From positions 3,834 to 67,833 of the forward strand of contig JAUSEK010000015.1 in assembly GCA_030650275.1 (NCBI GenBank): a stretch of 64,000 bases of DNA. Direction: 5' to 3'. Each line of letters opens with the position of its first letter. The first letter of the stretch is position 1. The DNA comes from Candidatus Omnitrophota bacterium. Its GTDB lineage: Bacteria; Omnitrophota; Gorgyraeia; Zapsychrales; Fredricksoniimonadaceae. Under the pieces are notes generated by a model. It ran no database searches, was not told the DNA's origin, and saw only the letters and a program-made list of their open reading frames with translations. The position numbers and the translations under genes are program-made. Below are positions 1-63,978 of the stretch, in pieces.

Positions 1-3000
1 GGTCCATCGGCAGCCTCTACGCCAGCCGTGCCGGGAAGGGCGCGGGTGGGGTCTTTTTTATGTCCGTAGTAGCTATGTCTCTGGGCAAATCTATGCCAGT
101 TGCCCGGCAAGAACGACGCATCCAGTGTCTCCCGGTAATAGCTGGAAGACACATCCAGATCGATCCACGGATTCTGGATCAAATGCATATCGAGCTTCAC
201 CCGCTCATCCGCCGAGAGATCTCCTGCGCTAACCATCCGCCGCTGGATCTCACCGCGGATCGACAGGATCCCTTTAAGGACTGTCCTACTGCCTGCTCCA
301 TTCGCCACCAGCGGTATCTTGTTTATCTCCACAGCATCTCTGGCCTGAGCTGCGGCCGCTTCTTCATCTCCGCCCGCCTTCCTGGCATCTTTTCTCGCGC
401 TCTGCTCCGCTTTTGCCTTCTCACGCTCTATGTACTCATGCCGTCTCTGTAACTGCCCCGGGTCCAACTCCACATCCTGTAACCCCACAAACTCCCCATA
501 CAGCGCTCGCTGCATCCATCCATCTATGATCTGATGCATCCCATGGTTGATCGCATCTTTATACACATCCATTTTCCCTAAATGTTGCGCTGTATAATGC
601 CTTACTCTTTTTTCTTCTTCCGTACTTAACAAATACACTATTTCTACCCTGCGGCCGGTATTTAACTCCAGCAACCGGAGCATCTCTTCGAATCCTTCTA
701 TCTCACTATCCTCTTCACTGCCTAAATCTGTATACCTTAAGATCGGGAAGGTATCGCGGAACGTCTCTTGCGCCAATCTGTGTCTGTCCGCCGATGGGAC
801 CTGTGCGTCCGCGCTCACCTTCTTGTAGTCGATCTTCCCCTGGATCCTCATGACCACAAAATCCAGGCCCAACACATACGCTGACATCAATGCGATCAGC
901 GGATGGCCCCAGACCAGCGGATTCGCTGTGATCGGCAAATATCCTACCCGCAATGGCCTGCTTCTTAACTCATAGAGCCGCTCGTCTTGCACGTCTGTCC
1001 CATACTTCATCGTTCTAAACTTGACAAACGGCTCCGTCTTGCCTTCTCTGGCCTTTTGTGCCAAACCTTTTAGCGCCATTTCCATCGCTATATACAACCG
1101 TGGAACGAAGTGCTTGGATGTCCAATCTGTTCGCCCGGGGTTCTCTTCATAGAGACGCCTGATCTCTTTGACTTGTTCCCTTAGGCCATTCGTCCCTGAT
1201 TCAATCTCACCGCGGATATGTGCCCACACCGACTCCACCGCTCTCGCGGCCTCTTCCTGCCGATGTTCCAAATTCAAACTGATGTCCACACGCCCATTGC
1301 CAAACGGCAAGTCTGCCCATTCCCAAATACCATCAGTCACAAAGATAAACGTATATTGGAAGCCTTTGTTGACTTTAACTGTGGTCTCATAAATCAACTG
1401 TCCATTTCTCTCCCTTACAAACTTAAGCGGCCCACCCTCCTGCCTCCAATTCTGTTGATCCTGGTCTTTATTCGTATACAGCATCACTTCTCCCCGGAAG
1501 GTCTTCGCATACGTGACCGCCCTTAATACCACTTCATCCCCGGACAGGGCCTGTTTGTGCACTTCATCGATATATCCTCGCCTTAACCGACGGCCGATCT
1601 CCTGTTGCCGGGAAGTGTTTTCTCCCTCACTAAGGTTGAATTCAGGGTACGCGCCAATCTCATGACCGAGGCTCAAAACCTGTTCTTCGAGGGTGTTGTA
1701 ATCGGGATAGTTATTGCTGATGATGAGGTATTGCTGACCGTTGCGGGTGACAATGGTGGCTAAGAACCCTTTCACGGGACCGGCGCGGACCAGGCCGGCT
1801 ATGGCCATCTGTCTTAAACATTCGGCCATATGCGCGGCACCGATGGCTTCCAAAGCCCGGATCGCCAGTTTCACCGCAGCGCTGTTCTCATCCAAAACTG
1901 CGAAAGTATTGATGTCGTGCCGGCTCATTTCGAGGTCGACTTCCTCCTGGCTCAACAGCTCTGTGTCCGGTAAACGGCGGGTGGGGTCGCCGGTAGTATT
2001 GGCAGCATCAACGGCAACACTTTTTATGGTCCTGACGATATCTCTGTGACTAAACACCATCCTCATGGTGCTGTTGCCGCCCGCTGCATGGGCCAATTCG
2101 TCCACACTTGCCGCCTTGATCTCCGCCACCAAATTCCCGTCCACAACACCCATATCTGTCATCTTCCTGATGATACCGTCAGCATTCTCTTCCACCTGCA
2201 CGATGTAAACATCCACACTTTCACGCACAATACCCTGATGCTCATGCGAATACCGGTATATGTCATCTACAAATCCATCCATATGCCCTGGTATTCCTTC
2301 CTTAAGATGCGTCCCGGCCGAGATTGTGTTGTTTTCAAGCCACATATCGATCCCTAAGGACCTTGCCAGAATTCCGGGATCTGTCCCGCGCGCGCTGAAG
2401 AATGTGCGGCGCCCCTTGGCTGTTGCGGTGCCCTGGCCCCGAATATAATGGATCAGATGTCCTTCCTTGGACACGATCACGAAAACCACCCTCTGCTCCC
2501 AAGATCCTTGAGGAGCCAATGCTGCCGCGGATGGATCCGCGGATGCTGTGCTGGGCAAGGCAGGGGTGTGGGCGATGACCGATTGTGCAGCCGGCTTCTT
2601 GCTCCCCCACATCTCATGCTCAATCGCATATTTATACCAACGGGAAGGCAATAAGGCACTTGCTGCCGGGTGGCCCTCTTTTAACTTCTCCCGCAACAAG
2701 GTCGAGGAGATGTTTAAGTCCACATCCGGACCTTTGATCAAAAACATCGGGATGTCAGAGGTCGCATAAGCACTACCCATATCCTCCCGCGTAGCCTTGA
2801 CCGCGCTGTGGATCGTATCGATCCCTTTTAATGTCTTCGGTCTGCCGCTCCCATTGGTCAGCGGTATCCCTGCCTTAGCGTCATGCTCAGCTTTTTGAAC
2901 AGCTTCCTCTATTTGTACCGGTTCAAGACCAGATTTCTCTGCCTTTGCTTTGGCCTTTGCTTTTTCTGTAGCAATATACGCGCTTCTTTTTGCCAGCTGA

Positions 3001-6000
3001 TCAGCAGTCAACGTCACATCTGTTAATTCCACGAATTCCCCATACAAGCCTCTTTGGATCCAGCCCATGGAGATCCGATGCCGCTTGCTATCAAACCGAT
3101 GTAAATTCTTGCTCAACATCTCATAATGCAGGCGTATGTAATGCTCCACCCTTACTTCTGTCTCGGTGCTGAGCAAATACACAATATGCAGCCTGCGGTA
3201 TTTGTTCATCGCAAGAAGATTAAACATCTCTTCAAAGCCTTCCACCACTCTTTCTTTTTGCGTCCTAGGATCAATGGGCAGATCTTCACTGCCCAAACTC
3301 GTATAACTAAATACCGGCCGCAACCCTTCCCTGATATCCTCTTGCAACAGCCTATGCCGGTCTTTCTTGGGCGCCAAGTCCTCCGGGGCCATCGGCTTAT
3401 GAATCGCTCCCTGACCGCGTTTGACCAATCTATCCGCCATTACCTGATTACCGCTGGCCAACAACACCCACGGGTGACCATATACTTCAGGGTTAGCCGT
3501 AAGAGGAAAATACGCCACTGTCGCTTCTTTGAGCGGTACGAGCATAAAGAACATCTTAGTCAACCACTCAACCAGCCAGTTGCGCTTGATCAAACTCACC
3601 GGTGCAAACACGTTGATCTTCCCTTCCCTGGCCAAGCGCGCGCGTTGTTCTATGCCTTCCTGGAACACCCTAAAAAGATTCTCGGACACTATGCGCACTT
3701 CACTGCCTTCCGGCTCCTGCATGGCCGCCTCATAACCCGGCCTCATGTCTTCTTCTATGTACCGGGCTACGCGGTTGATCCTTTGCTCCTGCATGATCCG
3801 ATAGGATTCCCTCACAGCGCCGCGGATGCCTAACTCCGTCATCTGCTTGAATTTTAAAATGAATCGCACGCCGGCACCGACCCAGTCCGTGCGGGCTTCC
3901 AGCCGATGCTCGTATTGAGCAAACAGATGTTCTTCGTGCAGATTCTGATCGTGGGTGCCGTTGTTGCTTTCGTGAACAAGAGTGTAACTAAAGAAAGAAT
4001 TGTCGTTAATGGCGATCAGAATATACTCTAAACCATTGACCCGGACATGCGCCCCGTAGGCTGTTCCCATGGAACCCGCACGCACACGGCCGGCTTGCAT
4101 TAAGGCGCGCAACTTATCGGCTTTGTCTTTCTGTCCGGCAGCCTGATGATACAACAATACCTTTTGCGCGTCTTCCATCTGCTCATACACCGCCTTCCAA
4201 CCATGTCCGTGGATCGTGTTGCTTTCGATCAAGTGACGCGCTTCCGCTTCCACTTCACCAGCTGTATGGCCGGGACGGGGTTTGGCAGGATCGTTCGTTG
4301 TAGACGGCTGCCAGGTCCAATCGGATCTTTCACGCATTATTCTCTTAAAGTTTTCCGCAATGGTCTGTTCCTGCTCTGCTGTCAACGGCCTCTTTTCTCC
4401 AAAGGCAAACGGCAGGCCGCCCAGGGAATTTGCCCAACCCGCGGCCCCCATCAAGAGGTCCGACTCTTCCAAAAGGTGATAAACTCCACGACCAAACTGC
4501 GGGATGGTCGGCTGGATCGCCATCTCAAAGGTGCCGTCCTCGTGAATGCGCGCCACGATCAATGCCGTAAGACCGTGGCGATACATGTCCAAAATGTCCT
4601 GATGGGCCTTAAAGACGATCGCTTCCAGATCTTTTCCGAGATAAAAAAGCGCTCTGGCCGGCCAGCCGTTCAATTCGCCATAAACCATATCTTGACCGGC
4701 CGCTCCGGTCCGACGGAAGGTGACAAGGCCGGAATCAATGGCTCTCCAGAGCGGATTCCTCATCGGAGCTGAATGAGTATGCCAATGCCCTCCCTGGCTG
4801 GCCCCACCGCCCTGACCATTGGCCCAGGATTCGAACTCTTTACCGCGGGCGGCAGTAAACAACAAAAAGTCGCGCAGTCTATCAGCATCATCAAAAGTCA
4901 GGGCAACTCTGTCCTTGGCCAGCAGCATGATATGTCCCCGGGCCCACTCGCCGATCACCGTCGTTATGAAATATTCATGGCCTGTACCGCCCTTGGCAGG
5001 ACCGATGACCTGAAAATTTCTGCGCACATTAAAATCACACATGGGGCAATCTGTGTCCGGATGAGGAACATTGACCCTCACCCGCGACGCACCGGCATCT
5101 GCGGACTCCAGCGCTCTTATTTTCTGGGCTTCTGCATTTTTAGCCAGCGCTGCGGCTTCATGCGCCGGTGTGGCATAGCGGACCAGGATGCCGGTCGGTG
5201 TGCGGTGAGGATGGAAGACAAGGACCAGCGGAATGCCGTCTTCAGTCCTGATATCAACTTCATTGCTATGATCGAACCGATGGATCATTTCACCATCGGG
5301 GCCCATCTGCTCTGCGGCTGTTTCATAGCCCCTTTGGATCTCCGCGTCGGCAAAACCGACATTGTGTCTGGCGCGGGCCAGATCAATTGATGTCTGACGG
5401 CGATCACTTTCAACCGCGGGCGGCTGCCAATCCCAATCGGAAGCGTTGCGCATCATTTGTTCGAACCGGTCCGCCACGATCCGGCGTTGTGTTCCATCCA
5501 ATTCCTGGGCAGGACCAAAAGCATACGCCACACCACCCGGGATCCGGGAAGATCCGTTGCGGGTGGATATCAATTCCGGACCAAGCGGCTGCTCAAGCAG
5601 GTATGTTACACCGGACATGGCACCCAATTTTCTTGGACCGATCACCAGTTCATAAGTCCCATCATTCAATACACGGGCATTGATGGCGGGGGTGCTATTA
5701 TGATTATATAGATCTCGTAGATCTCTACTTGCAACCTGGACCAATTTTTGGACATTTTTACCTCTGTATATCCTCACTCTCGCCGGCCATCCCTCCATCT
5801 CACCGAACACCACATCGGATCCGAAAAATCCAGGATTCACAATAGTGACCTTACCGCTATCAATGGCCTTCCAAAGCGGAGAACGGAGCGCGGCGGAATG
5901 AAAATGCAGATGCTTGCCTTGTCTGGCGCCGCCCCCTGGGGCATTGGCCCAAGTTTCATGATCGCTGCCGCGTGCCGCGGTAAAGAGCAGCAAATCGCGC

Positions 6001-9000
6001 AATCTATCGGCATCAACGAACACCTGGGTGACTTTATTCTTGGCAACAGCCATGACCATCTCACGGCCATATTCACCGATAACTGTGGAAATAACGTACT
6101 CATACCCCACCGGGCCGACCGCGCGGTCCATGATCTGCCAAGGTTGTTTCGCATCAAAATTACACAACGAACAATCAGTGTCGGAATGGAGCATGTCAAC
6201 CGTTGTTGGTTCAGGCTGCCCATTACCTGCCAATGTCCGGCCCGGCAGGAAGGACAGCACGAACCGGACGCCATTTGTAGAAACAATTTCCACATCAGTG
6301 GAGGCATCATATGGATGGATGTTTGTTCCATCCGCGCCCTCTCTGGCCGCGGCGCGATCATAGCCATTGCGAATTCTCGCGGCAGCAAATCCTATATTAA
6401 CTTCAGCATCAGCCAAACTAATTGATGCCTGGTCTGCTTCCGCTTCCAGCCATCCCCTAGCTTTGTCTTCTCTGATAGTATTAGTTCCATCATCGTAGCC
6501 GAATGCGCTGCCGATCTCATGGGCGAGGCTCAAGACCTGTTCTTCGAGGGTGTTGTAGTTGGTATGGTTGTAGTCGGAATAATGGTCGCTGATGATGAGG
6601 TATTGCTGACCGTTGCGGGTCACAATAGTAGCTAAGAATCCTTTGACAGGGCCGGCACGGACCATGTGGTCTCTGGCCATCTGTCTTAAACGTTCGGCCA
6701 TATGCTGCGCGCCGATGGCTTCCAAGGCCCGGCTGGCTAATCTTACTGCGGCATTATTTTCATCCAGCACAGTGAAGGTATCGATGTTGTGCTGGGCCAT
6801 TTCAAGGTCAACTTCCTCTTGGGTCAACGGCGTTGTACCCGGCAAACCACGGGTCGGGTCATTGCGGGCCCCTCGACCATAAGAACCTTTCAATCCATAA
6901 GAAACATTTTTCAATAAACCAAAGGGTGTCAGAATAATACCTATAAGGACCAACGGCATTAAAGTCAGCAGCCCATGGATAAAGATCAGAAGCCGGTCAA
7001 TGCCTCCGGTCACCCGTTTCCCGTCCGTCACACGGACAGTCGTGCCGCTGACTAAAACCTTGCCCCAGTTTCTAAATTCATTAACCACGATCCCCAACCA
7101 CCCGAACAGGCCGACATCGTACGGCGTGGAACCGGGATTGTAGAATGTTGCCGAATAATACGTGGACAAGAAATACATAAACACCGGCCAGGACAACCAT
7201 TGCGAATCATTGTGATAAAGCCACAAGCCAAGGCCGCTAAATGCCATGCCCAGCAAAGCCGGTGACAGATGCGATCTCTCAAACGTTTCATACGTTGTCG
7301 GCTGCTGTTCATTAACAGCGTCATGAAGAACAAAATAGCGGTGTTCAAGGCCAAGCGTCCTGCCGGATCCCACGTATTTGGCATCGCCTCTCTGGGCCGT
7401 GTCCACGCCCTGCTTGTGGACGGAAACGAAGAACTGGAAGAATGGTGAGGTCATTAGAAGATATGTGACCCATTGATCAAATCCTGGGCTAAGCAGAATA
7501 ATGGCCAGCGGCGTGAAAGCCAGCAAAGAGATGGCCCCGTAATAGTATAGGCCTGATAACACAGCCAACTGGGCCAGGAACGGTACATAATTTCTCATTT
7601 GTATCCTGCCCAAATGAACGACCAGGATCGCAACAGCATAGGTTGCCAGAAGCGTCATCCACAGTGGAGCTGTCCCGAACATCATGACCGCCACCTTGCC
7701 AATAATAAACCACTGCACCGCCAGAGGGACCATTCTTCGTTTCTCGATCGTACCCAAAAGCCCGTGGTCAAAAATGAGCCGTACCAGCCCCGTCAACGTC
7801 GCGGCCTGGGAATAGATGATGCCGACAATGGCCAGCGATATTTCAAGAATGAACGCGGCAAAACCGCTTAAGCCCAGATAGACCAGGAATCCGGCATAAG
7901 AAAGGTTCGAGTTGTGCACGTGCGGCTCTTTGGTGTAGAAGCCGGTGCCGCCGAAGAAGTGCGTCAAATTGCGCAGGCGTCGGGTCACAAGATTGCCATA
8001 GACCGGTGCGTCCCTTAAATTTCTGGCCGGTTCAGAATGATATTGCTGCGCGCCGCCGCCGCCAAACTTGCTGTTCTTGGCCGCAACCCCCATAAGGCTG
8101 ACTTCACGGGCCTTGCCGGCCTTGGTATAGTAAATGAGCCTGACCTGCTTGCCTTTGGCCGTCCATTCATAGCCGGAGGGAATGTCTTCATTGACCACAT
8201 AGGCCTTGGTAATGCGGCCGATCATGTCCGTATAATTGGTGTCCCACCAATCCGGGTGACCATATTGATACCTCTGCTTACCAACCATGTCCTGGCTGGT
8301 TTGGACGACCAGGTTAAAGGTGCGGTCAGCATGCGCGTCAGCGGCGCCTTCGACAGAAATGTGCTCGGTAAAGATAAATTCAGGAAGCCCCACATTGATC
8401 ACATTGTTGTGTCTGAATTCCTGCGAGACATTAGGCGCCAGGAACGCGTCCTCGATGTAAACATCCTGGTTCTCATCCATGCCCTGCATATGCCGAACCC
8501 GGACAAACGGCTGCATGTTGATCTGGTTCGCCGGTTTGCCCTGGAAGGAAACCATCCTACCCGAATATTCCAAACGCATGATCACATGCGTCGGCTGACC
8601 CAAGGCATCGATGTCCCCTGCCCTGAAATAAACGCTGTTGCTGTTGGCGATCTTGTTGACCGTCTCCATATAAACGATTTCCAGATTGGAATAGATCTCA
8701 AACAGGCGAAGATAATGCGCCAGCAATTCCGGTCTGGCGGAAATGCCCTCACGCGGATTTCCAGCAATGCTTTCCCAGACCTGGAAGCCCAACAGCGGCT
8801 GGAATTGGTCTTGCACGCGCTGATGGACCATCGCCTGCCATGCCGCTTCGGAAGCATAGATGCTGCGGTCGTGGTAATTGATCTCAGCCAAAAACGTGAG
8901 GGCCTCTTCATAATGCATGATGCCGCGCACGGTGCGGCCGATGGTCTGGAACCGGGAAGCGGCCCACATCTGCACTTCAAATTTCACCCACGGATGTTGA

Positions 9001-12000
9001 ATGATCAACGGCTGTCCGCGTCTTAAATTCTCCATATTCTCCAAATCCCGCACGATCTGCGGATCCGTGACAAAACCATTGGCGTCCCTGCCGCCCGGAG
9101 CATCGTTATGGCCTCTCATGTTGATGCCTCTGGACAAACGCCGGATCACATTGCGCCACTGGTTCGGGGTCAGATCGATCATGTAAGTCAAATTCGTATG
9201 CCGGCCTTTGTCACGACGAATGTTGAGCTGGTCCAAAAGGAGATCTTCATTGGCATATTTGGGTATTCCCACACCGATGGAAATCTCATCAAAATCCGGC
9301 GCCTGTGGCATATCCATGGTGAGCTGTTCATAGATCGCATATATCCTGCGATAGACATCCGCATCCTTCGGGGCCTTGCTAAGATCGGGCCATTGAATGA
9401 TCACACCGTTGAGCCTGTCATTGCCAAGGCCTTCCCCTTTAATCTTGAATAAATAGGCTGCCAGCTGACCTTCGGACATTTCGTCTCTGATATTCATGCT
9501 TCTCATCTGGGCATTCCACCAGATGGCAAAGGCAATGTCTGTTTGCTGGGGCGTCAAGCGGCCGACGGATCCCGGCAAGACCTTGGTGACGAAATTCCTG
9601 CGCAAAGTGCCGCTGTGCATGGCCAGCCGCACCCTCCACCAAAATGGGAAGATGTGTTTACCGACATAGGCCAGTTTTCCGGCAGCGAGAATGGCCTGGG
9701 CCGCCTGGAACAAAGAATACAGAGACAGGACGTGATAGAAAATGAACGGCAGCCACAAGATCACCTTGGCCATGGTGCCGCCGACGAAATATCCGAGCAC
9801 GAACCAGCTGCCGAACACCAACGCCATCACCGGTAACGGGGCGATCAGGGACACAACGGCCCATGCCACGCCCTTCTTTTGGTCCCAACCAAAATTCTGG
9901 GCGATCTTAACTTTCAGCAGGATATAAACGAAAAAGAAAAGGATGCCATTCGAAGGCGACCGCAGATAACGCAGAAGTCCCGGGAAATCAATGTAGGCAA
10001 AATAGTCAACCGCATTGACCGCATCCAGGACGTAAGGAATGACATAATTGTTCCATTCATAATGAACAAAAGAAACAGCCGCCCAGACGAGGACCATGGT
10101 CAGGGTGTTCCAGAATTGTTTCGGGGCGGGGATGCCTTGGTAGGGCGGGACCGGTTTACCATAAAGTCCTGTACCGGCCGTTTTACTTCTGGGCGCTTGC
10201 CATATGTGTTCGATCACCTTGAAAAGAGCATAAAATCCGCCTAGGACCACGGCGATCTTGACAGCCGGACCCTGGCCGGCATTGTGCCAAATGGCGGCAA
10301 TGAACGTCAACGCCGCGTATTCATAAATCCCGATGTTGGCCAGGGTGGTCTGAATCCAGCCCTTCCAGCTCAAGGCCCCGCCCATCATTTCATTGTAGGT
10401 TTTATAAGGCGTCAGGTGGGCCGGAAAATTATTGCCTTGGGCTATGGTGGTGGCCGGGTCCCAATGAACGCCGCCGTTCCAATAATGAGCCAAATAAGCT
10501 TTGATATAATCAGGCGTCCTGAAAAGGCCTTCCATGTTGTCATGATTGACATATCCGGGCAGATAACCGCCTCTTTGCGGTTGGGACCGCATCCACACCG
10601 ACCATCTCCGGGCTTCGGCTTCGATCGCAGCGCGCACCTGGACCGACCGTCCTTCCGCAACCATGTGGCGAGCCAGGTGGAACAGGAACCATGTGACGTC
10701 GGAGGAAGCGCGCATTTCATCCGCGATCATCAGCACAGCGAAATAAATCCTGAGATCTTCACGGGTAAAGACCATGCCGCTCGCATCAATGCCCATGACC
10801 TCCCTGAGTAACCACAAATACCGTTCAAACAGATCCGGGGAAACCGTGTGGTTCGTCATCACGGCCGGAGCGCTCATCCGCTCACCAAGCGTCTTTCTGA
10901 CCTTCATTTCCATGCCGAAATGTTGGGACGGCGTCAAACCGAAGCTGGGCTCCAACGGCGCACCGGTTGAGATCTGCCGGAATGAAACCCTTCTGCCGGG
11001 ACGGGCCCCTCTGATGCGATTTATATGCTTGGCGAGCCAGCCGAGAAGGAAGGCGGCTGCGGCCGCTGCGACCAGCACTTTAACGAGCGTCAGCAGAACG
11101 GTGCCCTGCTCCTGTAATTCTTTTATCCAGCTGCTGCGCAGATCGGTGCGGACTTTGGGATTTTCTTTCGCCAATTCTCCGTTGATATACCTGTATTGCT
11201 GTTCATGCCAGACCCCCTGGATATTGACGCCCCCCGAAACAGGTTCTTTTTCATAGACCTGGACGGCGGTGGCCATGTCAAAATCGGTCCTGCCGAGATC
11301 GGCATAAGGAAGCGCCAGCGGATTGGGATCACCCTGGTCGGTATGGGCCGTAACCGCATATTCGGAGTGACGATAAATTTTGACCTTGTCCGTTTCTAAG
11401 ATCTGTCCAACATCGGCAGGCGCGGCCTGTTTGAGGACCAGGGCGGAAAAGACCGGGTTCTCAAATTCATTGATATATGTGATCTCATCCTTATAAGGAT
11501 CAATGAGGGCCCCCTGATTGAATACAGCCAGAGGCGTGATAATGTGCAAACCGGCTTCAAGAACTTTGCGCCCGGTGAAAAGATTATAGTAAACGGCCCG
11601 TTTGAACCGGTCGCCACGGACATCATAAGCCAGGAGTTTATTCCCACCGACCTCGGTAGTCCCCCGGAAGACCTCGCGCGTGGGGCCTTCCCCGCTACGG
11701 AACAGTTGAATGTTCTGCGGCATGATGTTGGACGAAGGCAGATCGGTCAAGGACACGATACTGCGCAGGTCCGCCGTAGCACGGTGCATCCACCAGGTAT
11801 TGATGGTCATGTTCCCGGCGGAGGTGATGACGGCCAATGAACGCCCGTTGCTGTCGAAACGACGCAGGACCTGAAACGAAGGCCTGGTCCACACCCCGGC
11901 CATGGTGCCGCCGAGGTTACGGGGCTGGTTCTGGTCACGGATCATGATCAGTGAGGTGTCCGGAGTTATGCCTTCCTGCTCAAGGTCCTTCCATAGGTCC

Positions 12001-15000
12001 CTGCCGGTCAAACCATTGATGGCATTGACCGCCGCCGGAGTGAATATGTCTTTGGCTGCCCGGCTCAAGCGGATGTCACGGCGTTCCACGCCGTTCAAGA
12101 AATCTTTCTTCTCCACGATCTCGTAATTCTTGTTTAAGGTGATGGACTGCGTGACCTCACCGGTGATCGCGTCAAAGTCAAGCGCCACCACGGTCTGGTC
12201 AATATTCCCCATGGCATCGTAATGCACGGTCACGAACCGGCGTTCCTGCACGTCGAATTTCTTCTTGAAATCCCTGAATTCTTTGCCTTCCACGCTGACG
12301 ACCGGGATGCGCTCCATGACCGTCAATGCATTGATCCCGAAACGGGCAAAGGCCCGAACGATCTCGGGGAATTTCATCAAACGCTCATACCCCATCCCGT
12401 CCCTGGCGGCCTCCACATCCACCTCGCCGAGGATCTTGCGGACAGGCATCCACGTCGTATCCCGGCGCTCGGAAACCCGGCGTTCTTGAAGCACATTGTT
12501 TTGGTCATACACACGGTCATCATTTTCAAACCAGTCTATCTGCACCGGGCCTGCCCAGACCTGATCGGCATTGTTCAGCGTCCCGGGCAAACGCATGATC
12601 CCCTTGGTCTCCTGCAGTTTCAAGCCGTCCGGCGTAAAGACCATTCTCACGACTAAGATGAATTCCCCAGGTCTTGCGCCATTAAGCCGAGCATCATCAA
12701 CAATGATCCGGCCGTTGTTTTCACCGATACGGACCACGGAGATCGCGTCCTTGAATTGGACATTACCGACGGTCAGATCCAGTCCTTGGTGGTCTTCATG
12801 CAAATTGTCTAAGTAAATGCGTCTGGGCGTCGTGGCCGCGCGCGCGAAATCACGAACAACCGGCCATTGGGCGGCCGGGACACGAACGCGGATCTCCACG
12901 CCTGGAATATTCAAATAAACGATCGACTGGGTCATGGGTTCGATGCGGCGTATGGGCTTGTCGGCGGTTGCGTCCGGATAAATGTCAATGGTCACCGTGT
13001 CCTGTTGGAAATTCTGGCTGGCAATGACACGATTGCCCTCTGTTACGGTCGGGTCCAAACGCCGCGCCTCCGCCAAGGTCAAGGGCCGATTGTGGCCAAT
13101 GTGAATGGAAAAATCAGCGTAAGGGTATTGACCATCCGCTCTCCTGGTCCCATATAGCGGATAAATGTCCGAGCTTCCGTCGGCATATACCACTTCCCGG
13201 CGGGACGCTTCCTTGTTGGCCGCAAAGTAATAACGCTGCCTGACTTTATAATCCGGGCCAAACACCGTGAAAGTCGTGTACTTGGTGCGCAGGACATCAT
13301 ACGCTGTACTGGCAATCCGGGTGGCCTGCGGCGGGGCAATGACCGGTGCCACGGGAGCGATCGACTGTGCCGTCGTGGGTGCAGAAGATTGTGCCGGCGC
13401 GGTCTGGACTGCCGTAATGCCTAAGTCCCTGATCGCCTGTTGTAAGGCCGCACCTGTAGGTTTGGCCGCACCGCTAAACAACTCACGCAAGGTCCAGAAC
13501 GCCTCCCTGGGCGTGCCGTTGGCATCAATGATCCCCCACCATTCTTCATTGGCAACACCATCGTCCGGTAATCCGGGTAAAGGCAGACCGGTCGTATCCT
13601 GAATATTTAAATTGGCATTCTCATTGGCCTTCCACAATTCATCCCGGCCGCCGCTCATATAGGTGACGCCTAAGAAAATGCTGGGATCAGCCCTGGCCAT
13701 CAGCGTCCGTTGGATGTCGCGCAAGGCACCGGCTTGCATGTTCTGGTCTTCACGCCGGGTCCGTGCGTTATACGAATCCGTCCCAGCTTCAGAGATGTAC
13801 ATCTTCAAATTCTTGTTGATACCCGGAGTATTCAGAATGCCGCGCCACTGATCAATGACGCCGGAATCATCCCTGCCGCGGTACATATTGACGCCCCAGA
13901 CATCCACCGACGGTACCTGACGGACAACGCCAATGGTCGGGATCTCGCCATGGGCCGTGGAAACCCGAATGGCCGGGGCGATCCCCTTGGACTCCCGTGC
14001 CGCCTGCTCCAACATCCTGTACCAGTTGTTGACACTGCCGTTAAACCATTCCGGATGATAGTTGTACTCATTGCCGAATTCAAACATGGCGATCGCCGGA
14101 TGATTCCTGTAGGTGCGGATATAGTCCTTGTAGCGTCCGCCGGAAATATCATATTTATCAGCCGCCGAGATAAAGCGATCATCGAACGACGGGAACCCGA
14201 TGATGGCCTTGATACCGTTCTGGGCCAGGGCATCCAGGAACGCTTTGGAGGTGATCGGATAATAGGTGCGGATGACGGTCATGCCCGCGTACTTCATCCA
14301 TTTGACGTCGTTGATATGACGGTCCCAATTGATGCCGGTCCTGCGGGTTTCCCCTTTGGGGATCGGGCTATAGGTGATACCGCGCAAAGGCATAGCCGCG
14401 TTCACCGTAGGAGCCGGCGGCGTCTGCGCATAAGCAGATAACGGACCAAATATGTCACCAAGAACGCGCCCGATCTGACTTAAAAGATTGAACGGTTGTG
14501 ACTTCGCAGGCGCGGTAATAGGCGCAGGAACAACGACATGCTCTGGATTCCCGACAGAAGCATTCGGGAATGACAAACTGGGCGACATGGCCGGTTGAAC
14601 GGCGGCAGCCGGTCGGGCGGCAGGAGCAGCCGGGGTAGCACCGGAGACCTTGTGCCCGCCCAATAACATGGGATCATATCCAGACACTGCAAAGCTATAA
14701 TAAGTGCCGCTGACTAAGGCCGCATAGGCCCTGGAGGTGATCGTGTCAAATCCGGTACTAACGACGGCAGTATTACCGGCGGCGTCCACCGCATAAGAAG
14801 CTGTCAGTGCACCGCCGTTGGTCTTAAAGAACCCGGCCAGCGACCGTACCAGGCCTTCATACTTGGCCTTATACTCCTGGGATTTGGCTGTGTTGCCGAC
14901 ACTGGAAAATTCCTGAGACACGGCAAGATAACGCAAGGCCAGTTGCGACGACCATTCGATGGAAATGACCTGTTTCCTGTTGCGGTAATCGATGCCAAGC

Positions 15001-48368: not shown

Positions 48369-48612
48369 GTTGATTCTGTCGTTTTGGCTCATTAGTTTTT
48401 GCTATTTTTTGGATAAAGGATTGTCAATAACTGAAGTATAACACATTATATATAAGCGGCAAATTTTTGCAAAATTTTTTACGCATTTATTTGCTTATAT
48501 TGCAATAGGTTACGTCTTTTCTCCAAAATTTTTTAAATATATTCCAAAACTTTGTTCTTATAAGTAATAAAAATATTAAGAAAGCGTTTTCTTTGTGAGC
48601 ACATGACTTACG

Positions 48613-58453: not shown

Positions 58454-58466
58454 GAAGTTCTCCCAG

Positions 58467-58655: not shown

Positions 58656-58702
58656 ACGCGCTCCCTACGATTTAGAAACCACTAAGGGACCCCCACCGGG
58701 GG

Positions 58703-59035
58703 TCATCTGCCCATATATTCCTGCTCGGTGTTGACGATCACCGATCTTTCCGACGTATTGGTGGTTTCGGGACCGATCAATCCGGTCGCGGAAACGCCCT
58801 GTCCGTCCACACCGAACGTCTCACGGCTCGTGCTGGACGTGTTGGTGGTCTTGATGACGTTGGTATTGCCCACCGAATACTGGTCGCCGATATCGTCGGC
58901 AGCGCTCTTTAAACGGCCCTGCACGCCGCGCTTGATGTAAAACTGGATGGACAACAGCGCGCCGATGATGATGACGGTCAGCACCGCGTATTCAAGGGTG
59001 CTTTGCCCTCTTTTTTGGCTAAAATAAGTCAACAT
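58703..59035 (-). CDS. TadE-like pseudopilin (…KRGQSTLEYAVLTVIIIGALL…).
   Basis: 110 aa with a class III signal motif. Confidence 0.5.
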   Translation of the reverse strand: MLTYFSQKRGQSTLEYAVLTVIIIGALLSIQFYIKRGVQGRLKSAADDIGDQYSVGNTNVIKTTNTSSTSRETFGVDGQGVSATGLIGPETTNTSERSVIVNTEQEYMGR

Positions 59036-59065
59036 AGAACATCCTCCTTAAGATACGATTTTATT

Positions 59066-59452
59066 TTAGTCGCCGCCGCCTGTCCCGTCGGTGCTGTACG
59101 TTGACTGCTGGGTACCGGTCCTGCTGCGGTTGGTCGTTGAGTCCGCGGCGACCAGACCCACGCCCTGACGCTTGTTCTCTTGGGCGTTACGGGTGCTGGT
59201 ATAATCGCTTTCCAGGTAATACGGTTCATACTGCGTTTGGTTGCCGATGGCGTTGGTCTGGCTGGCCAGATACTGGCTGGCATCGTGCATCCTTGCCTGC
59301 AAAGAACGCTGGGCATAGGTCTGCATCGCGATGACGCCCGCGACGACCAGGGCGATCAACAGCGCGTATTCCGCGGTGTTCTGCCCCGAGCGAAGTCGAG
59401 GGGTTTGTCCTCTGGTATTTTTAAATAAATTTCTAAACATATGTTCCTCCAT
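59066..59452 (-). CDS. TadE-like pseudopilin (…RSGQNTAEYALLIALVVAGVIAM…). An alternative start is ATG 59440.
   Basis: 128 aa with a class III signal motif. Confidence 0.5.
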   Translation of the reverse strand: MEEHMFRNLFKNTRGQTPRLRSGQNTAEYALLIALVVAGVIAMQTYAQRSLQARMHDASQYLASQTNAIGNQTQYEPYYLESDYTSTRNAQENKRQGVGLVAADSTTNRSRTGTQQSTYSTDGTGGGD

Positions 59453-59469
59453 TTATGGATGTTGTTTCT

Positions 59470-59724
59470 TTAAAATCCGGCCGTCGGGTCCACCGTGACG
59501 CCCGGCGCGGGAGTTACTCCGTTAGCGGTTGCCCCCTGGCTGTTCACCAAACGGTTGCTTATGCTCCCGATGCTGTCGGCGGTTGAGTTAAGGGTATTGC
59601 CCAAACGGCCCGTCAGTGCCGAATTCGGGCCGGTGGTAAAAAAGATCATCGCGCCGATGACCGCGGTCGCAAGCAAGATATACTCCACCGTGCTCTGACC
59701 TTTTGTCTTCATTTTCCTGAACAT
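59470..59724 (-). CDS. flp: Flp-family pilin (MFRKMKTKGQSTVEYILLATAVIGAMIFF…), 84 aa.
   Basis: It has the Flp motif and a perfect AGGAGG 7 nt upstream of the ATG at 59724. Its 5' end is near-identical to the flp gene at 58467-58655. Confidence 0.7.
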   Translation of the reverse strand: MFRKMKTKGQSTVEYILLATAVIGAMIFFTTGPNSALTGRLGNTLNSTADSIGSISNRLVNSQGATANGVTPAPGVTVDPTAGF

Positions 59725-59757
59725 ATAAATGCCTCCTGATGTATTTAAGATGCTTTG

Positions 59758-60015
59758 TTATTCGTTGGCGATCTCCTGCGTCACCGCCTTCTGGGTGGCC
59801 TGCACGGAACGGAACACGTAGGTGCTCATGGCCGCCATAGCAGCGGACACCAAGGCCACGACGATCGCGTATTCGATGAGATTTTGTCCTTTGATGTTCC
59901 TAAGGATCATCGCGGCTGCTCCTACATGAAAGATAAAGGAAGTATGCCATATAAAATAAGGGATGTCAACCCTTCGACCTAAAAATTCGCGTTGTTTTCC
60001 GACGCTATCTGACAC
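59758..60015 (-). CDS. flp: Flp-family pilin. The likely start is ATG 59910 (MILRNIKGQNLIEYAIVVALVSAAMAAM…).
   Basis: It has the GQNLIEY class III signal. The track ORF extends to 60015 and overlaps the upstream gene. Confidence 0.55.
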   Translation of the reverse strand: MSDSVGKQREFLGRRVDIPYFIWHTSFIFHVGAAAMILRNIKGQNLIEYAIVVALVSAAMAAMSTYVFRSVQATQKAVTQEIANE

Positions 60016-61295
60016 AGGACCCGGCGCCCGTTCTCATCGCGGATATTCAGGGCATTGACATTATCCGCGGCCTGCCGCAGAAAAGCAATGTGCGCATAAG
60101 AGGCAGGGGCCAGAAGGGTTATGTGTCTGCCCTGCTCAATAACCCCTTTAAGGGCCAAAACCGACTCAAAGGCATCCTGCCCAAAATCGGACGGGAAAAA
60201 GGCGCGCGCACGGGCTTGAAGCCGGGCCAAAACCCATGCCGGCTGGTCCGCAATATCCCCCCGCAAACTATCCGCCAGGGGGGACATGTTGATTTGAACC
60301 GGAGGATGGCGGTCTTTGAAGATACGCGCAATTTCATCATTTGATATATGTGGGCTAAAATTTGATAAAACTGACATATTCTTATCATATCCATCCATTT
60401 CTAGCCTTATATATCGTAATTTATGGTTATTCTGCTCCACTTCTAGATTTCTTGGCATTCCAAGAATGACATTCTTTTTTTGACGGGGGGAACAGGAAAA
60501 TTGAGCCAGGACAATTCCTCCTGCGCCCAACAAGGATGCCCGTGTCATGCCTTTACCAGCCACGCCCTCACAGGCCTGAAAAAAACTAAGGATCAAGGCG
60601 TCCGTAGCATTCTCCCCCAAGGAGCGTATGCATAAAGGATTGATATTATTAAGGATACAATCTGCGGTGTCCTGGATACAGCGCTCAATGCCTGCGGGAA
60701 AAATAGCCCTGCTAGGACCAAGGGCCTGAAAACGGCTGTCCATCTCAACACAAGAACCGTCTTCCAGATCGATCTTTAAACGTTCAACCACGGTGGATAT
60801 ATACTCCCATTCTTCTCGTAAGTTATTCAGATTTAATGACTTAATGTCTTCCAGTTTCTTGATCCCCCATACAGGACGGGGGAAAATATCCCAAAAAGTG
60901 GCTTTAATGAAAATCTCGCCCATGCGTTCCTGGACTTCGCCCCTGACCAACGGGCTGGGGGCTTGTTCCACAACACGCGGGGCCTGCTCTATGAGTTTTG
61001 GGGCAGGCGGTGGGGGTTGGAAGATCACGCCAGGCACGACATTGGCGAACAATTGCTGTTTCTTCTCCGGGGGGATCTGGAATTTGATCTTGGGTTTTCG
61101 GCCGCGAGGGATGACCACGCCATGTTCTTTTAAGACATCATGGACCGATGACTTAGAAACGACCTTTTGATGCCGTTCATGGACCAAGCCGGCGATCTCC
61201 CGGCAGGACAGACGGGGAGTTTCCTGTTTGCGTTCAATAATAAAGGAAACAACGTCTTCGGTGAGTTTATAAACAACGCCCATAGAAACCCCCAA
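59979..61295 (-). CDS. HTH-domain protein of unknown function. The N-terminal roughly 60 aa form a helix-turn-helix (…LSCREIAGLVHERHQKVVSKSSVHDVLKEHG…). The track start is TTG at 61295; ATG at 61283 is more likely.
   Basis: 438 aa with an N-terminal HTH. A 19-bp perfect palindrome sits immediately upstream (61297-61315). Confidence 0.45.
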   Translation of the reverse strand: MGVSMGVVYKLTEDVVSFIIERKQETPRLSCREIAGLVHERHQKVVSKSSVHDVLKEHGVVIPRGRKPKIKFQIPPEKKQQLFANVVPGVIFQPPPPAPKLIEQAPRVVEQAPSPLVRGEVQERMGEIFIKATFWDIFPRPVWGIKKLEDIKSLNLNNLREEWEYISTVVERLKIDLEDGSCVEMDSRFQALGPSRAIFPAGIERCIQDTADCILNNINPLCIRSLGENATDALILSFFQACEGVAGKGMTRASLLGAGGIVLAQFSCSPRQKKNVILGMPRNLEVEQNNHKLRYIRLEMDGYDKNMSVLSNFSPHISNDEIARIFKDRHPPVQINMSPLADSLRGDIADQPAWVLARLQARARAFFPSDFGQDAFESVLALKGVIEQGRHITLLAPASYAHIAFLRQAADNVNALNIRDENGRRVLCQIASENNANF

Positions 61296-61296
61296 T

Positions 61297-61315
61297 AATG
61301 TCCAGACTGGACATT
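61297..61315. promoter_or_regulatory. 19-bp perfect palindrome AATGTCCAGACTGGACATT immediately upstream of the HTH-protein gene. It is a candidate operator.
   Basis: Seen directly in the sequence. Confidence 0.4.
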
Positions 61316-61483
61316 TTCGTGGTGCGGGGCGCTGGTCCGGCGAATAAGCCGGACCGCTTAGCGCGCCTGCGAGCCAGTGAGCAGGCCGGGTTCCTTAATG
61401 TCCGCGCAGGAACGAGCACGGTGGGGGAAACCGAAGACAGGACCCGCCCTTAATAATTATTAGACATCATTTAAGATATTATT

Positions 61484-61825
61484 TCAACCGATTTGAATAT
61501 TATCGCCCATGTGTGTTTGGGAGGCGGCAATGGTGCCGGCAGAGGTCTCAATGGCGCTGTGGGCTTGCAGGAAGAATGGAGAAAATTGAAAAGGCCGGAT
61601 GTCGGGGCACAGGCCCACCGCCGTGTTCGCGCGGTCAATAAAAATGACGTCCAGCGGGAATTTCATGAACAGCATGTGGATGCTGCGGCAGGGGGTGATG
61701 ACCAGCGCTTCGCCGGAATTGAGCGCCCCGCGGCCCAGCAGTCCGGTCATGCGTTTGAGGGGAGTTTTCGCCAGCGAACCGGTCTCGGCGATCAGCGTGC
61801 CGCGGGTCAAATTACGGATGGTCAT
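61484..61825 (-). CDS. DUF192 (COG1430) family protein.
   Basis: The 113-aa product has the pattern …GLLGRGALNSGEALVITPCRSIHMLFMKFPLDVIFIDRANTAV…, which matches the DUF192 signature. It has an ATGA overlap with the upstream ATPase gene. Confidence 0.45.
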   Translation of the reverse strand: MTIRNLTRGTLIAETGSLAKTPLKRMTGLLGRGALNSGEALVITPCRSIHMLFMKFPLDVIFIDRANTAVGLCPDIRPFQFSPFFLQAHSAIETSAGTIAASQTHMGDNIQIG

Positions 61826-63978
61826 ACGTTAAAGACGGCCTTGGACAGCGGAATGCCTCTGGTCTGGAAGTCCTCGAAACATTTGGGCACAAAGCCGGTG
61901 GCGCTGTATTCGCCCAGCACCACGCCGTCGGCATTGATGCCTTTTTGTTTAAAAATGAATACGTCCTTGAGCTCCGGAAGGCCCTCGACTATTTTTCCGG
62001 TCAGCTCGGAGATCGCCGTGATCTTGCGCGACCCGTCGGAAAAACGGGAAATTTGGATAATGATGTTGATGGCGGAGGCCGCCATTTCATAAATGGCGCG
62101 GATGGGCAGTTCAATGCCGGAAAGAAGCACCATGGAGCTCATGCGCGAGAGCACATCGCGCGGGGAATTGGCGTGCAGGGTCGTCAAAGACCCGTCGTGG
62201 CCGGTGTTCATGGCCTGGAGCATGTCCAGGACTTCCGGGCCGCGGCATTCGCCGATGATGATGCGGTCGGGCCGCATGCGCAAGGTGTTGATGAACAGGT
62301 CCCGGATGGTCACGCGTCCGCGGCCTTCAATGTTGGGCGGCTTGGACTCCAGGCGCGCCCAATGACTTTTCACCAAACGCAGTTCCGCCGCGTCTTCAAT
62401 GGTGATGATGCGCTCATTGTCCGGAATGAATTGCGAAACGATATTGAGCAGTGTTGTCTTGCCCGCGCCGGTGCCGCCGGAAACGATCACGTTCTTGCGG
62501 CCGATGACGCAGGCGTTCAGAAAATCCACCATGGGCTGGGACAGGGAATGGAATTTATTTAAAAGGTCGTCAACGGTGTAGCGCTCCTGGGCAAACTTGC
62601 GGATGGTGATCATGGGCCCGCCCAGCGACAGCGGGGGGATGATGGCGTTGATGCGCGAGCCGTCGGGCAATCGGGCGTCCACCATCGGGGCGCTCTCGTC
62701 CACGCGCCGGCCCAGGGGAGCGATGATGCGGTCAATGGTGGCGCGCACCTGGTCGTTGGAAATGAAGCGCTTGTTGGTCAAAATGATCTTGCCGCGTTTC
62801 TCGACGAAGATCTCATCCTTGTTGTTGACCATGATGTCGTTGATCTCCGGGTCGGCCAGAAAATCCTCCAGCGGCCCCAGGCCGAGGGCTTCATTGACGA
62901 TCTCACGCACCAAACGCGAGCGCTCCTCATGCGAAGCGATGAAAGCGCCGGCGGCCTCGGCCAGCAATTCGGAAACGATCTTGGCCGCGGCCTTGCGGAT
63001 ATTGGCGGCCTGTGCCGGGTCGGAAAGCGCCTCGGGCGAGATCTTCTGCACGTTCATGCGCTCAACCAGACGCTGATGGATGGCTTTTTTAAGTTTGATG
63101 ACCTCGTCCTCTTCCTGCCTATAGATCGTGACGGGCGATGAGGATCCGGGGGCAATGCCGAATTTTTCCCAGAACTCATTGCCCTTCTGGGCCTGCGTGT
63201 CCGCCGCGCGCACCTTGATGACGTCCGAGGCCTGCACATACATGTCTTCAACTTCGAGTTTGCCGGCAATCTCAAAAAATGACTCGGACACGCGGGCTTT
63301 GGGGCTGTCCATGACGCAGGGGACCCCGCGGTTGAGCGCCAGGCCGACGGTCTTCCCGTCGGAGGGAACGAGGGCGAAAATGTCGCAGGCCAGCGCCGAC
63401 TTGACCTCCTGCCAGGCCACCCCGCCGCGGCTTTCAGCGCGGTTGAGAATGAGTTTGACCATCTTTAAAGGATAGTGCAGGCTCTGAAGGATGTCGAGCG
63501 TCGCCTTGACCTGATAAACAGCCAAAATGTCCGGCGTCGCGACGAGAAGAATTAAATTGGAAGAATCCAGAACGCTGATGAGCATTTCGCTGAAGGCGCT
63601 GCCGGCATCCACGACAATGTAATCATAGATCAACGCCGCCTTCTTTAAAAAAGGACGGATATTGTCGGCCGTGATGTGTCCGGTCTGGCGGATATGCGTG
63701 ACGCCGGGCAGGAACTCCAGGCCGCTGGCATGGCGCAGGACATAACCGCGGATGATGTCGGGTTTCTCGTCCTTTTCAACGGCCGCCAGAAGATCAACGA
63801 GGGATTGCGTGGGGACAAGATTGAGCATGCGGGCCATGTCCTGACCGGCCTGCACGTCCAGGTCCACGATCAGGGTTTTCTTGGCCTTAAGGGCCAGGGC
63901 GGTCGCGATGTTGACGCCGACAAAGGTCTTGCCGACGCCGCCTTTATTGCTGAAAACCGTTATGACTCTGCAGGACAT
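61822..63978 (-). CDS. tadZA: Fusion of a TadZ/CpaE-like ParA/MinD-type ATPase domain (N-terminal) and a TadA/CpaF secretion ATPase (C-terminal).
   Basis: A deviant Walker A motif ([13 protein letters not shown]) lies at residues 8-20. CpaF-type Walker A ([16 protein letters not shown]) and the helical/His-box region (…[32 protein letters not shown]…) are in the C-terminal half. An in-frame stop upstream at 63988-63990 fixes the ATG at 63978 as the first start. Confidence 0.8.

Follow-up and report, generated by a model that had tools for sequence, protein, structure and literature searches.

An Omnitrophota-type giant gene with a predicted FKS-type glucan synthase module, paired with a Tad-like pilus cluster

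Giant open reading frames (ORFs) occur across the classes of Omnitrophota (Seymour et al. 2023). The giant proteins described by West-Roberts et al. 2023 (bioRxiv 10.1101/2023.11.21.568195) carry an N-terminal C39 peptidase domain near signal peptides and many transmembrane helices, and a conserved secretion/pilus locus, resembling a type II secretion system (T2SS) with GspD/E/F homologues, lies upstream of them. One class of these giants, the 'archaeovorins', combines the glycosyltransferase (GT) families GT5 and GT1 with glycoside hydrolases (GH), peptidases, methyltransferases and NUDIX domains, and its type protein, of 39,678 amino acids (aa), comes from Velamenicoccus archaeovorus. A 2026 preprint found pilus/secretion genes flanking 13 of 14 giants and defined a C39 architecture cluster of 24 proteins. 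Here we describe a related locus on a 64,000-nucleotide stretch of contig JAUSEK010000015.1 (the whole stretch analysed, hereafter the window), which holds the distal part of a Tad/Flp (type IVc) pilus cluster and the 5' 48 kb of a gene for an Omnitrophota-type giant protein.

Taken together, our analyses suggest that the pilus cluster and the giant gene are a co-inherited pair, in which the giant carries a glucan-building module of family GT48; we put the probability of this reading at about 0.6. The giant-pilus pairing has already been published, and this locus is a further example of it; the GT48/glycosidase module and the near-total lack of cysteine (Cys) are details not found in the searchable literature. 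Glucan synthase, GT48 and callose are unmentioned in West-Roberts et al. 2023, the 2026 preprint and Seymour et al. 2023, a full-text literature search combining GT48 or glucan synthase with Omnitroph* returned nothing relevant, and the published GT48 work that was found treats eukaryotic members only.

The giant gene and its conserved pairing with a Tad-like cluster

A six-frame scan of the window revealed a stop-free frame on the minus strand at 3-48401, comprising 16,133 codons. Its first ATG (48392) is consistent with where homologues start, and the frame exits at the window start, so that the C-terminus lies outside the window. An earlier note on this DNA had claimed a giant protein, and this is indeed a single open frame, of at least 16,130 aa. 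On the same strand and upstream of it, a Tad-like cluster occupies 50308-63978. The giant gene with its head, and the components that identify the cluster, are as follows:

3..48392, minus strand: giant ORF, at least 16,130 aa (stop-free frame and homologue starts)
47013..48392, minus strand: conserved N-terminal head of the giant, aa 1-460, with a short N-terminus, one hydrophobic anchor and a C39 peptidase
48201-48257, minus strand: hydrophobic anchor, aa 46-64 (hydropathy)
47523-47945, minus strand: C39 peptidase domain, aa ~150-290 (PF03412 and head alignment A1)
50308-51228, minus strand: TadC (PF00482 T2SSF, E ~2e-17)
51332-52186, minus strand: TadB (PF00482 T2SSF, E ~2e-17)
52216-52569, minus strand: pilin-like protein of 117 aa (N-terminal GxxxxE[YL]-type motif and hydrophobic helix)
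52544-55642, minus strand: Cys-rich pilin-like protein of 1032 aa (degenerate motif, KGQAALVLILL, and hydrophobic helix)
55887-57344, minus strand: pilin-like protein of 485 aa (N-terminal GxxxxE[YL]-type motif and hydrophobic helix)
57341-57673, 57712-58122, 58046-58453, 58467-58655, 58703-59035, 59066-59452, 59470-59724 and 59758-60015, minus strand: eight small Flp-type prepilin-like ORFs, together spanning 57341-60015 (G/QSTVEY-type motifs)
61822..63978, minus strand: TadZ (ParA/MinD-like, aa 4-250) fused to a TadA ATPase (aa 326-661), 718 aa in all (T2SSE E 8.6e-59 and ParA/AAA_31)

Metagenomic giant ORFs can be chimeric, and in L001 (10001-23756), the closest relative from the JGI metagenomes, the giant is called as two ORFs of 1251 aa and more than 4628 aa, about 285 bp apart; the gene may truly be split there, or a frameshift or sequencing error may be the cause. 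That the frame in the window itself arose by mis-assembly, or is a pseudogene in decay that looks like a single ORF, is nevertheless effectively refuted. The chance of an open frame of 16,133 codons, calculated from the strand base composition, is about 1e-320, several domains keep intact catalytic motifs, and the GC content is uniform across the window (0.48-0.59 per 2-kb window, with 0.534 in the giant gene), amounting to about 53-54% where the earlier note had given about 55%. In addition, window 45554-50859, which spans the junction between the giant gene, an AbiE gene pair and tadC, recurs with 100% identity over 5,306 bp in the independently assembled Logan contig SRR13727527_128561, and the arrangement is thus not an assembly error. 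This identical contig also indicates that the same strain is present in the public run SRR13727527. Exact-protein look-ups with TadZ-TadA and TadC retrieved no contig, and those with AbiEii retrieved only the 5.3-kb Logan contig inside the window.

The peptidase module that had been proposed for the giant was confirmed by a match of PF03412 (Peptidase_C39) at aa 207-284 (E 1.2e-7, Pfam on overlapping 1000-aa pieces), and residues C163, H248 and D264, a Cys-His-Asp triad, are invariant in the head alignment. The assignment of the neighbouring genes to a Tad-like locus was also upheld, with TadZ-TadA, TadB, TadC and Flp-type prepilins identified. The TadZ-TadA fusion matches the TadA family TIGR03819 at E 1.2e-93, and the prepilin-like N-termini (KGQSTVEYILL, RGQSTLEYAVL, GQNLIEYAIV and GQAVIELAIF) show the Flp G/xxxxE[YL] signature, the Pfam Class_IIIsignal and Flp_Fap matches in the small ORFs being weak. 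For some of these ORFs, the longest-ORF start is probably too far upstream. The 117-, 1032- and 485-aa pilin-like proteins had no Pfam, NCBIfam or PDB match, and have syntenic homologues in relatives. Motifs of the GGAG type precede at least seven of the tad genes, in agreement with the Shine-Dalgarno-type ribosome-binding sites noted earlier.

The head (aa 1 to ~460) is the sole part of the giant kept in all 83 related loci, while the body diverges quickly. With the first 1000 aa, four homologues were found at 32-39% identity, all with C39, and their contigs carry on one strand ORFs with class-III signals, ORFs of ~450-550 aa, ~900-1300 aa and ~120 aa, two T2SSF genes and the C39 gene. The head alignment was then scanned against one genome per GTDB species, which yielded 80 loci, most of them titled Candidatus Omnitrophota or Omnitrophica and the remainder mostly 'uncultured Planctomycetales', with one each from Elusimicrobia, Caldithrix and an unclassified 'bacterium'. 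The best head identity was 46-50%, and among relatives the head has diverged to 32-50%. Upstream sequence of at least 2.5 kb was available for 64 loci, and in 56 of these TadB-TadC lie upstream of the giant gene on the same strand, at a distance of 0.3-5.8 kb, and this indicates that the adjacency is conserved. The TadB and TadC of the window are 45-73% identical to the pair upstream of the relatives' giant genes, the order 485-aa protein, 1032-aa protein, 117-aa protein, TadB, TadC, giant is kept in relatives, and the C39 frame is open to the end of the fetched DNA in most loci (more than 3,700 aa). The position of the TadZ-TadA fusion falls outside the 10-kb flanks that were compared among relatives. 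The giant and a Tad-like pilus thus form a pair that has been conserved in the genomes of an Omnitrophota-type lineage; the co-localisation suggested by the earlier note holds in this survey, the idea itself being already published. The window contains no marker gene, and the relatives of its GT48 domain are named Omnitrophota or Endomicrobiaceae.

The two partners lie on the same strand, although not strictly beside each other as the earlier note had it: a segment of ~1.9 kb with a gene pair on the opposite strand separates the giant from the tad genes. The features of this junction are:

48445..48473, minus strand: sigma-70-like promoter, TTTGCA-17-TATAAT, ~50 nt 5' of the giant ATG (consensus scan, 10/12 matches)
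48852-49490, plus strand: AbiEi (PF13338 AbiEi_4, E 5e-5; marginal, with 23.8 bits against a cut-off of 25)
49487-50290, plus strand: AbiEii nucleotidyltransferase toxin (PF08843, E 6.8e-27, 95 bits against a cut-off of 22.5)

The two AbiE genes overlap by 4 bp (49487-49490). Together they form a toxin-antitoxin pair of type IV that has been inserted between the giant gene and tadC. The nucleotidyltransferase module formerly attributed to the giant is in fact this separate AbiEii gene. No AbiE homologue was found in the 83 related loci. Because of the opposite-strand AbiE insertion and the promoter-like site before the giant gene, the giant and the tad genes are predicted to be probably transcribed separately in this genome. 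The earlier note had named separate transcripts in combination with a non-conserved adjacency as what would speak against a functional unit; the former is likely here, while the latter is not borne out.

An AT-rich spacer of 459 bp (48393-48851) lies between the giant ATG and AbiEi. It holds a 28-nt inverted repeat (48613-48640 / 48657-48684, 89% complementary) and two 25-nt direct repeats, CAGAATGGAAATTATCAGAATGGAA, at 48684-48708 and 48725-48749. Such repeats could serve as operators for AbiEi or in the regulation of the giant gene. The tadC-giant junction also appears as an insertion hot spot, in the window as well as in L009, L017, L035, L038, L051, L053, L056, L063 and L074, and the large gaps of relatives at this position hold AAA_14/DUF4143 ATPases (5 loci), a DUF772/DDE transposase, a DUF1016 nuclease, and radical-SAM and YdjC proteins.

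Such observations could be taken to mean that the tad cluster and the giant are independent surface systems, neighbours by history and with no functional link. The probable separate promoter, the gap of at least 0.3 kb before the giant in every relative, and the AbiE genes, AAA_14/DUF4143 ATPases, transposases and nucleases inserted at the junction would all be in keeping with this. However, the gene order has been kept while the head fell to 32-50% identity and the body diverged beyond recognition, a retention over species-level genomes of a phylum that is hard to explain without selection, and we consider the absence of any link highly improbable.

A different kind of link, in which the Tad-like machine would be no adhesive pilus and would act as a T2SS-like piston that exports or inserts the giant or its C39-released fragments, also merits attention. 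The giant follows tadB-tadC immediately in 56 of 64 loci, many pseudopilin-like genes are present rather than a single major pilin, West-Roberts et al. call the locus T2SS-like with GspD/E/F homologues, and a near Cys-free giant fits a protein exported unfolded. On the other hand, the substrates of a T2SS are much smaller proteins that fold in the periplasm, the many transmembrane helices of the giant imply membrane insertion and not release, no secretin is visible in the window, and the tolerance of the junction for insertions and opposite-strand genes indicates that tight translational or transcriptional coupling is not needed. The piston model is regarded here as improbable.

The carbohydrate-active module of the giant protein

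Three carbohydrate-related modules follow one another in the giant, in the order GH76-like domain, clan GH-A barrel and FKS-type GT48, the last being flanked by its own transmembrane bundles:

14658..15845, minus strand: GH76-like (alpha/alpha)6 domain, aa 10850-11245 (homologues and profile against GH76)
13470..14405, minus strand: clan GH-A TIM-barrel glycosidase/transglycosylase-like domain, aa 11330-11641 (homologues, motifs and fold)
9708..11099, minus strand: transmembrane helices before the GT48 catalytic domain, aa 12432-12895 (hydropathy; helical bundle in the structural model)
7908..9752, minus strand: FKS-type GT48 catalytic domain, aa 12881-13495 (PF02364, FKS1 alignment and Foldseek)
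6930..7904, minus strand: transmembrane helices after GT48, a putative translocation half, aa 13497-13821 (hydropathy; aligns with the membrane part of Fks1)

The glucan synthase module already suggested for this protein was the best supported of its enzymatic parts, with PF02364 (Glucan_synthase) matching aa 13008-13495 at E 4.7e-46 (157.8 bits against a cut-off of 37.2). In a search of solved structures, residues 684-1272 of yeast FKS1 aligned to the giant at E 2.9e-20. Of the residues listed as essential in a review of Fks structures (PMC12715860), here in yeast FKS1 numbering, K1082 and N1085 are kept in the motif GKPANQ (aa 13285), D1102 and N1104 in DENQD (aa 13306), and E1221-D1222 in VNEDI (aa 13400), while Y849 and E851 are retained if a shift of one residue is allowed. 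The motifs YGHPD and GKAR[ED] are also kept, and the GT48 motifs are common to the giant, its Omnitrophota homologues and a plant callose synthase.

An AlphaFold2 (AF2) model of aa 12651-13850, built from 13 sequences, reached a predicted local distance difference test score (pLDDT) of 70 and a predicted TM-score (pTM) of 0.74. Its top 13 PDB matches in Foldseek were all Fks1 or Fks2 (E 3e-24 to 9e-18, query TM-score (TMq) 0.40-0.49, ~1,200-1,400 alignment columns), whereas BcsA and the hyaluronan (HAS), cellulose (CesA) and chitin synthases matched at E 3e-7 or weaker. Sequence, motifs and modelled fold all identify the module as a processive synthase of the FKS type that is integrated in the membrane. 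Relative to its closest homologues, the GT48 of the window has an insertion of ~95 residues after aa 13545 (aa ~13545-13640), predicted as extra hydrophobic helices in a part of the model with low confidence.

Exhaustive HMMER searches with the GT48 domain against 1.84 billion representative proteins gave 556 matches, 48 of them at E<=1e-30. The best were fragments of 1-8 kaa (thousand aa), the named ones coming from metagenome-assembled genomes of Candidatus Omnitrophota and from one Endomicrobiaceae; eukaryotic GT48s came next, at 22-29% identity, with plant, chytrid fungal, Cyanophora, Chromosphaera and Vitrella proteins among the named ones. A word-indexed homologue search returned one plant callose synthase only, which in the light of the exhaustive search reflects limited sensitivity and not rarity. 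A GH-A and a GT48 domain occur in one polypeptide in six other representative proteins. Among JGI metagenomes, nine loci carry GT48 in frames open over the whole 15-23 kb fetched (at least 5,000 aa), and three of the nine also contain the GH-A domain. GT48 domains inside very long bacterial proteins are widespread and deeply divergent. In a midpoint-rooted neighbour-joining tree of the GT48 core, the sampled eukaryotes (plant, fungal, glaucophyte, ichthyosporean and alveolate) formed one cluster, and the giant-embedded domains fell on several deep branches outside it; this tree, without support values and with names for only ~30 proteins, is treated as a lead only. The diversity of bacterial GT48 bears on the origin of the eukaryotic enzyme.

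The single glycosidase module of the earlier note resolved into two domains, recognised through their homologues and fold. The first, at aa 10850-11245, is 44-46% identical to three proteins (P0161-P0163), and a profile of the four sequences (A5) matches PDB GH76 alpha-1,6-mannanases at E 6e-5 over ~120 residues; Pfam GH76 matches three of the four alignment members, with a best E of 1.3e-6. The second, at aa 11330-11641, is 37-50% identical to P0158-P0167, which are domains of free-standing secreted proteins. These homologues match the Pfam GH2_C TIM barrel and, weakly, GH72 and GH17, one is named in its source as an exo-beta-1,3-glucanase, and they occur together with carbohydrate-binding modules (CBMs), PKD domains and Por tails, an arrangement typical of polysaccharide degraders. 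Two motifs, GNEYNY (E11442) and ISEAG (E11535), do not vary among the homologues.

The AF2 model of this second domain (pLDDT 71, pTM 0.73) is a (beta/alpha)8 barrel with alternating strands and helices, for which the top Foldseek PDB matches were GH158 with laminaritetraose (E 1.8e-13), GH2 barrels and the GH157 laminarinase. On the basis of this model, the barrel appears closest to the beta-1,3-glucanase families GH158 and GH157. A weak GH31 match at aa 11349-11462 was rejected, the region being part of the clan GH-A barrel. CBMs, which had been listed as a further module, were found only in the free-standing homologues of the GH-A domain; in the giant itself, Pfam on overlapping 1000-aa pieces and PDB sequence searches gave no CBM at E<=0.1, which does not exclude CBMs recognisable at the fold level.

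How these parts might work together can be proposed as follows. The GT48 domain would face the cytoplasm and use UDP-glucose, and beta-1,3-glucan would be extruded by way of its helix bundle. The GH76-like and GH-A domains, which lie ~1,250-2,000 residues before GT48 with roughly five predicted helices in between, would be placed on the outer side and could cut, trim, branch, cross-link or transglycosylate the GT48 polymer. The long Cys-free N-terminal part would also be extracytoplasmic. In this way, a coat or an adhesive matrix containing glucan might be retained on the huge extracytoplasmic part of the giant, with the Tad pilus encoded upstream supplying attachment to a host or prey cell. 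In fungi, Gas (GH72), Bgl2 (GH17) and Dfg5/Dcw1 (GH76) remodel the product of Fks1, and the trio found in the giant resembles this set. Two descriptions in the earlier note are predictions: 'surface protein', for the giant, follows from its hydropathy, and 'adhesin-like', for the large pilin-like proteins, from their size, N-terminal motif and Cys richness.

The principal alternative to synthesis is that the giant is a degradative predation effector, as in the 'archaeovorin' model, in which a surface giant digests the wall of attached prey, the GT handles breakdown products or self-glycosylates, and the pilus pulls the prey. West-Roberts et al. propose such a role for Omnitrophota giants with GT, GH and peptidase domains and an upstream secretion locus, and peptides of the V. 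archaeovorus giant were published to be ~3-fold more abundant in attached cells. The giant of the window also has two glycosidase-like domains, and the homologues of its GH-A domain are secreted CBM-, PKD- and Por-tail proteins of the polysaccharide-degrader type. However, the enzyme best conserved in it is a membrane synthase of the processive kind, whose active site is intact and whose fold is channel-like, and this is hard to fit with pure degradation. Pfam detected no murein or pseudomurein hydrolase, lytic transglycosylase, dockerin, HEAT, GT5 or GT1 domain in the available part of the giant, and beta-1,3-glucan and alpha-mannan are atypical for the walls of bacterial or archaeal prey. 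We consider a degradative role unlikely, if still credible.

Several points weigh against a co-inherited pair with a glucan-building module. The PF02364 profile is matched at positions 3-497 of 819 only, the accessory domain of FKS was not detected in the giant, and a regulator of the Rho1 type is not expected in a bacterium. The support for GH76 is weak, with no direct Pfam match for the copy in the window, and the family of the GH-A barrel is ambiguous, GH158, GH2 and GH157 all scoring at E 1e-13 to 1e-10. The topology, that is, the sides on which the glycosidase domains and GT48 lie, is a prediction based on hydropathy. On the side of the pilus, a secretin (RcpA/CpaC) and a prepilin peptidase (TadV/CpaA) are absent among the ORFs of 48-64 kb and may lie beyond 64000. 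Adjacency alone does not prove functional coupling, and the junction tolerates many unrelated insertions. Finally, published opinion leans to a degradative, predatory role over synthesis.

A bolder proposal, which we regard as possible rather than probable, is that some Omnitrophota giants might be builders and not only degraders, in which a fungal-style wall-building set joined in one polypeptide (GT48, a GH17/72/158-like barrel and a GH76-like domain) would spin and remodel, on the surface of the cell, a coat or tether of beta-1,3-glucan together with the adjacent Tad pilus, and that their GT48s could represent a prokaryotic source of the eukaryotic synthases. Published functional proposals for Omnitrophota giants rest on scattered domain matches, and the GT48 locus provides a concrete, testable handle. 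If the module is active, stains for beta-1,3-glucan, laminarinase or FKS inhibitors would be usable directly on enrichment cultures, and these could tell coat-building from prey attack by the giant.

The body of the giant and other genes of the window

Outside the head and the carbohydrate module, the giant is largely without recognisable domains. The further features of the giant and of the Tad-like cluster are:

37443..37583, minus strand: TPR repeat, aa 3604-3650 (Pfam TPR_2, E 5e-6; PDB CTPR matches)
33507..33737, minus strand: weak P-loop NTPase/helicase-like segment, aa 4886-4962 (Pfam ResIII/DEAD, E 0.0025-0.07, under cut-off)
23442..24296, minus strand: first internal hydrophobic-helix cluster, aa 8033-8317 (Kyte-Doolittle scan)
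3..6881, minus strand: C-terminal region with duplicated modules and two CxxC pairs, aa 13838-16130 (self-BLAST)
59979..61295, minus strand: 438-aa protein with an N-terminal transposase-type helix-turn-helix (HTH) and a proline-rich linker (HTH_32, E 1.6e-6)
61484..61825, minus strand: DUF192 protein (PF02643, E 9e-16)

In Pfam searches, pieces of 4500 aa gave C39, one TPR and Glucan_synthase only, and overlapping 1000-aa pieces added weak matches. The ~7,500 nearly Cys-free residues after the head contain only the TPR and the weak P-loop segment as recognisable domains, the latter with a Walker A motif (PAGGGKTT at aa 4912) and an RFC-like P-loop alignment. PDB sequence searches with the unannotated regions gave nothing useful. 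Over the available 16,130 aa, Pfam detected neither a methyltransferase nor a NUDIX or SecA_DEAD domain; as for SecA_DEAD, only the weak ResIII/DEAD P-loop near aa ~4900, under the Pfam cut-offs, came near to it.

Hydropathy placed hydrophobic helices, single or clustered, at aa 46-64, 8033-8317, 12432-12895 and 13497-13821, and the giant is predicted from this to cross the membrane in three helix clusters. The duplicates in the C-terminal region are 39-64% identical by self-BLAST and are confined to the last 2,300 residues; the modules after GT48 recur in the same position in two other proteins, P0029 and P0106.

The giant contains 10 Cys in 16,130 aa, with none between aa 532 and 14,073: the catalytic C163, four in the head, the two CxxC pairs in the C-terminal duplicates and a single further residue. 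The median Cys content of 55 related giant genes is 0.16% overall and 0.03% beyond aa 600. The pilin-like neighbours are Cys-rich, with 38 Cys in 1032 residues, 11 in 485 and 6 in 117. This depletion of Cys in the giants is unmentioned in either of the preprints on Omnitrophota giant genes (West-Roberts et al. 2023; 2026 preprint).

For the 438-aa gene within the pilus cluster, weak IS481/IS630 matches were restricted to the HTH, the C-terminal part is unannotated, and the GC content at third codon positions (0.53) is lower than that of its neighbours. A complete insertion sequence (IS) element was rejected, as the transposase match covers the HTH only and no terminal inverted repeats were found. 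The protein may derive from a transposase that was domesticated or has degraded, or may act as a regulator, and it was not found in the fetched flanks of relatives. In addition, no DNA tandem repeats and no tRNA genes were found in the window, and no Rfam families were matched there.

Comparison with described systems

The C39 domain of the giant shares with those of the bacteriocin and RTX ABC exporters (ComA, HlyB-type) the signature of a papain-like fold and the catalytic Cys, His and Asp. It is not fused to an ABC transporter, and follows a single N-terminal anchor.

The pilus cluster resembles the Tad/Flp type IVc systems of Aggregatibacter (tad) and Caulobacter (cpa) in its TadA ATPase, TadZ/CpaE-like ParA domain and TadB/TadC pair, as well as in its Flp-type prepilins of ~50-130 aa with the G/xxxxEY motif and its further pseudopilin-like genes. 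It differs from them in that TadZ and TadA are fused, DUF192 and HTH genes are interposed, ~9 pilin-like genes occur together with the 485-aa and the Cys-rich 1032-aa proteins, and no secretin, TadD or prepilin peptidase lies within the window.

With the GH158, GH157 and GH17 beta-1,3-glucanases and the GH72 glucanosyltransferases, the GH-A domain shares the (beta/alpha)8 barrel and, in the strands where they are expected, an NE motif of the acid/base type and another conserved glutamate. Its identity to solved structures is 13-18%, GH2 barrels score about equally, and no single CAZy family is assignable with the tools used.

Like fungal Fks1/Fks2 and plant callose synthases, the GT48 module has a CesA-like GT-A domain inserted between two transmembrane bundles and carries the motifs GKxxNQ, DxNQD, YGHPD, NED and GKxR. 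It is ~25-29% identical to these enzymes and sits at aa ~12,400-13,850 of a bacterial giant. In contrast to them, it has DEN instead of DAN, shows no FKS1_dom1/accessory domain, leaves the C-terminal part of the Pfam profile unmatched and contains the ~95-residue extra helical insertion.

The closest described system is that of the giants of West-Roberts et al. 2023. Both have an N-terminal peptidase domain by a signal or anchor (C39 here, C39 or S8 in the published type), many transmembrane helices and a fast-diverging, mostly unannotated sequence; both contain glycosyltransferase, glycoside hydrolase and peptidase domains and have Omnitrophota relatives, and both are preceded by a cluster with GspE/GspF-type genes and many small class-III-signal genes. 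The published genes extend over more than 90 kb and are followed by PilZ genes; the frame of the giant here leaves the window at position 3. Within the 16,130 aa available, the giant of the window is without the HEAT, GT5, GT1, methyltransferase, NUDIX and SecA_DEAD Pfam domains; its glycosyltransferase is instead the predicted FKS-type GT48, and an AbiE pair splits its pilus genes from the giant.

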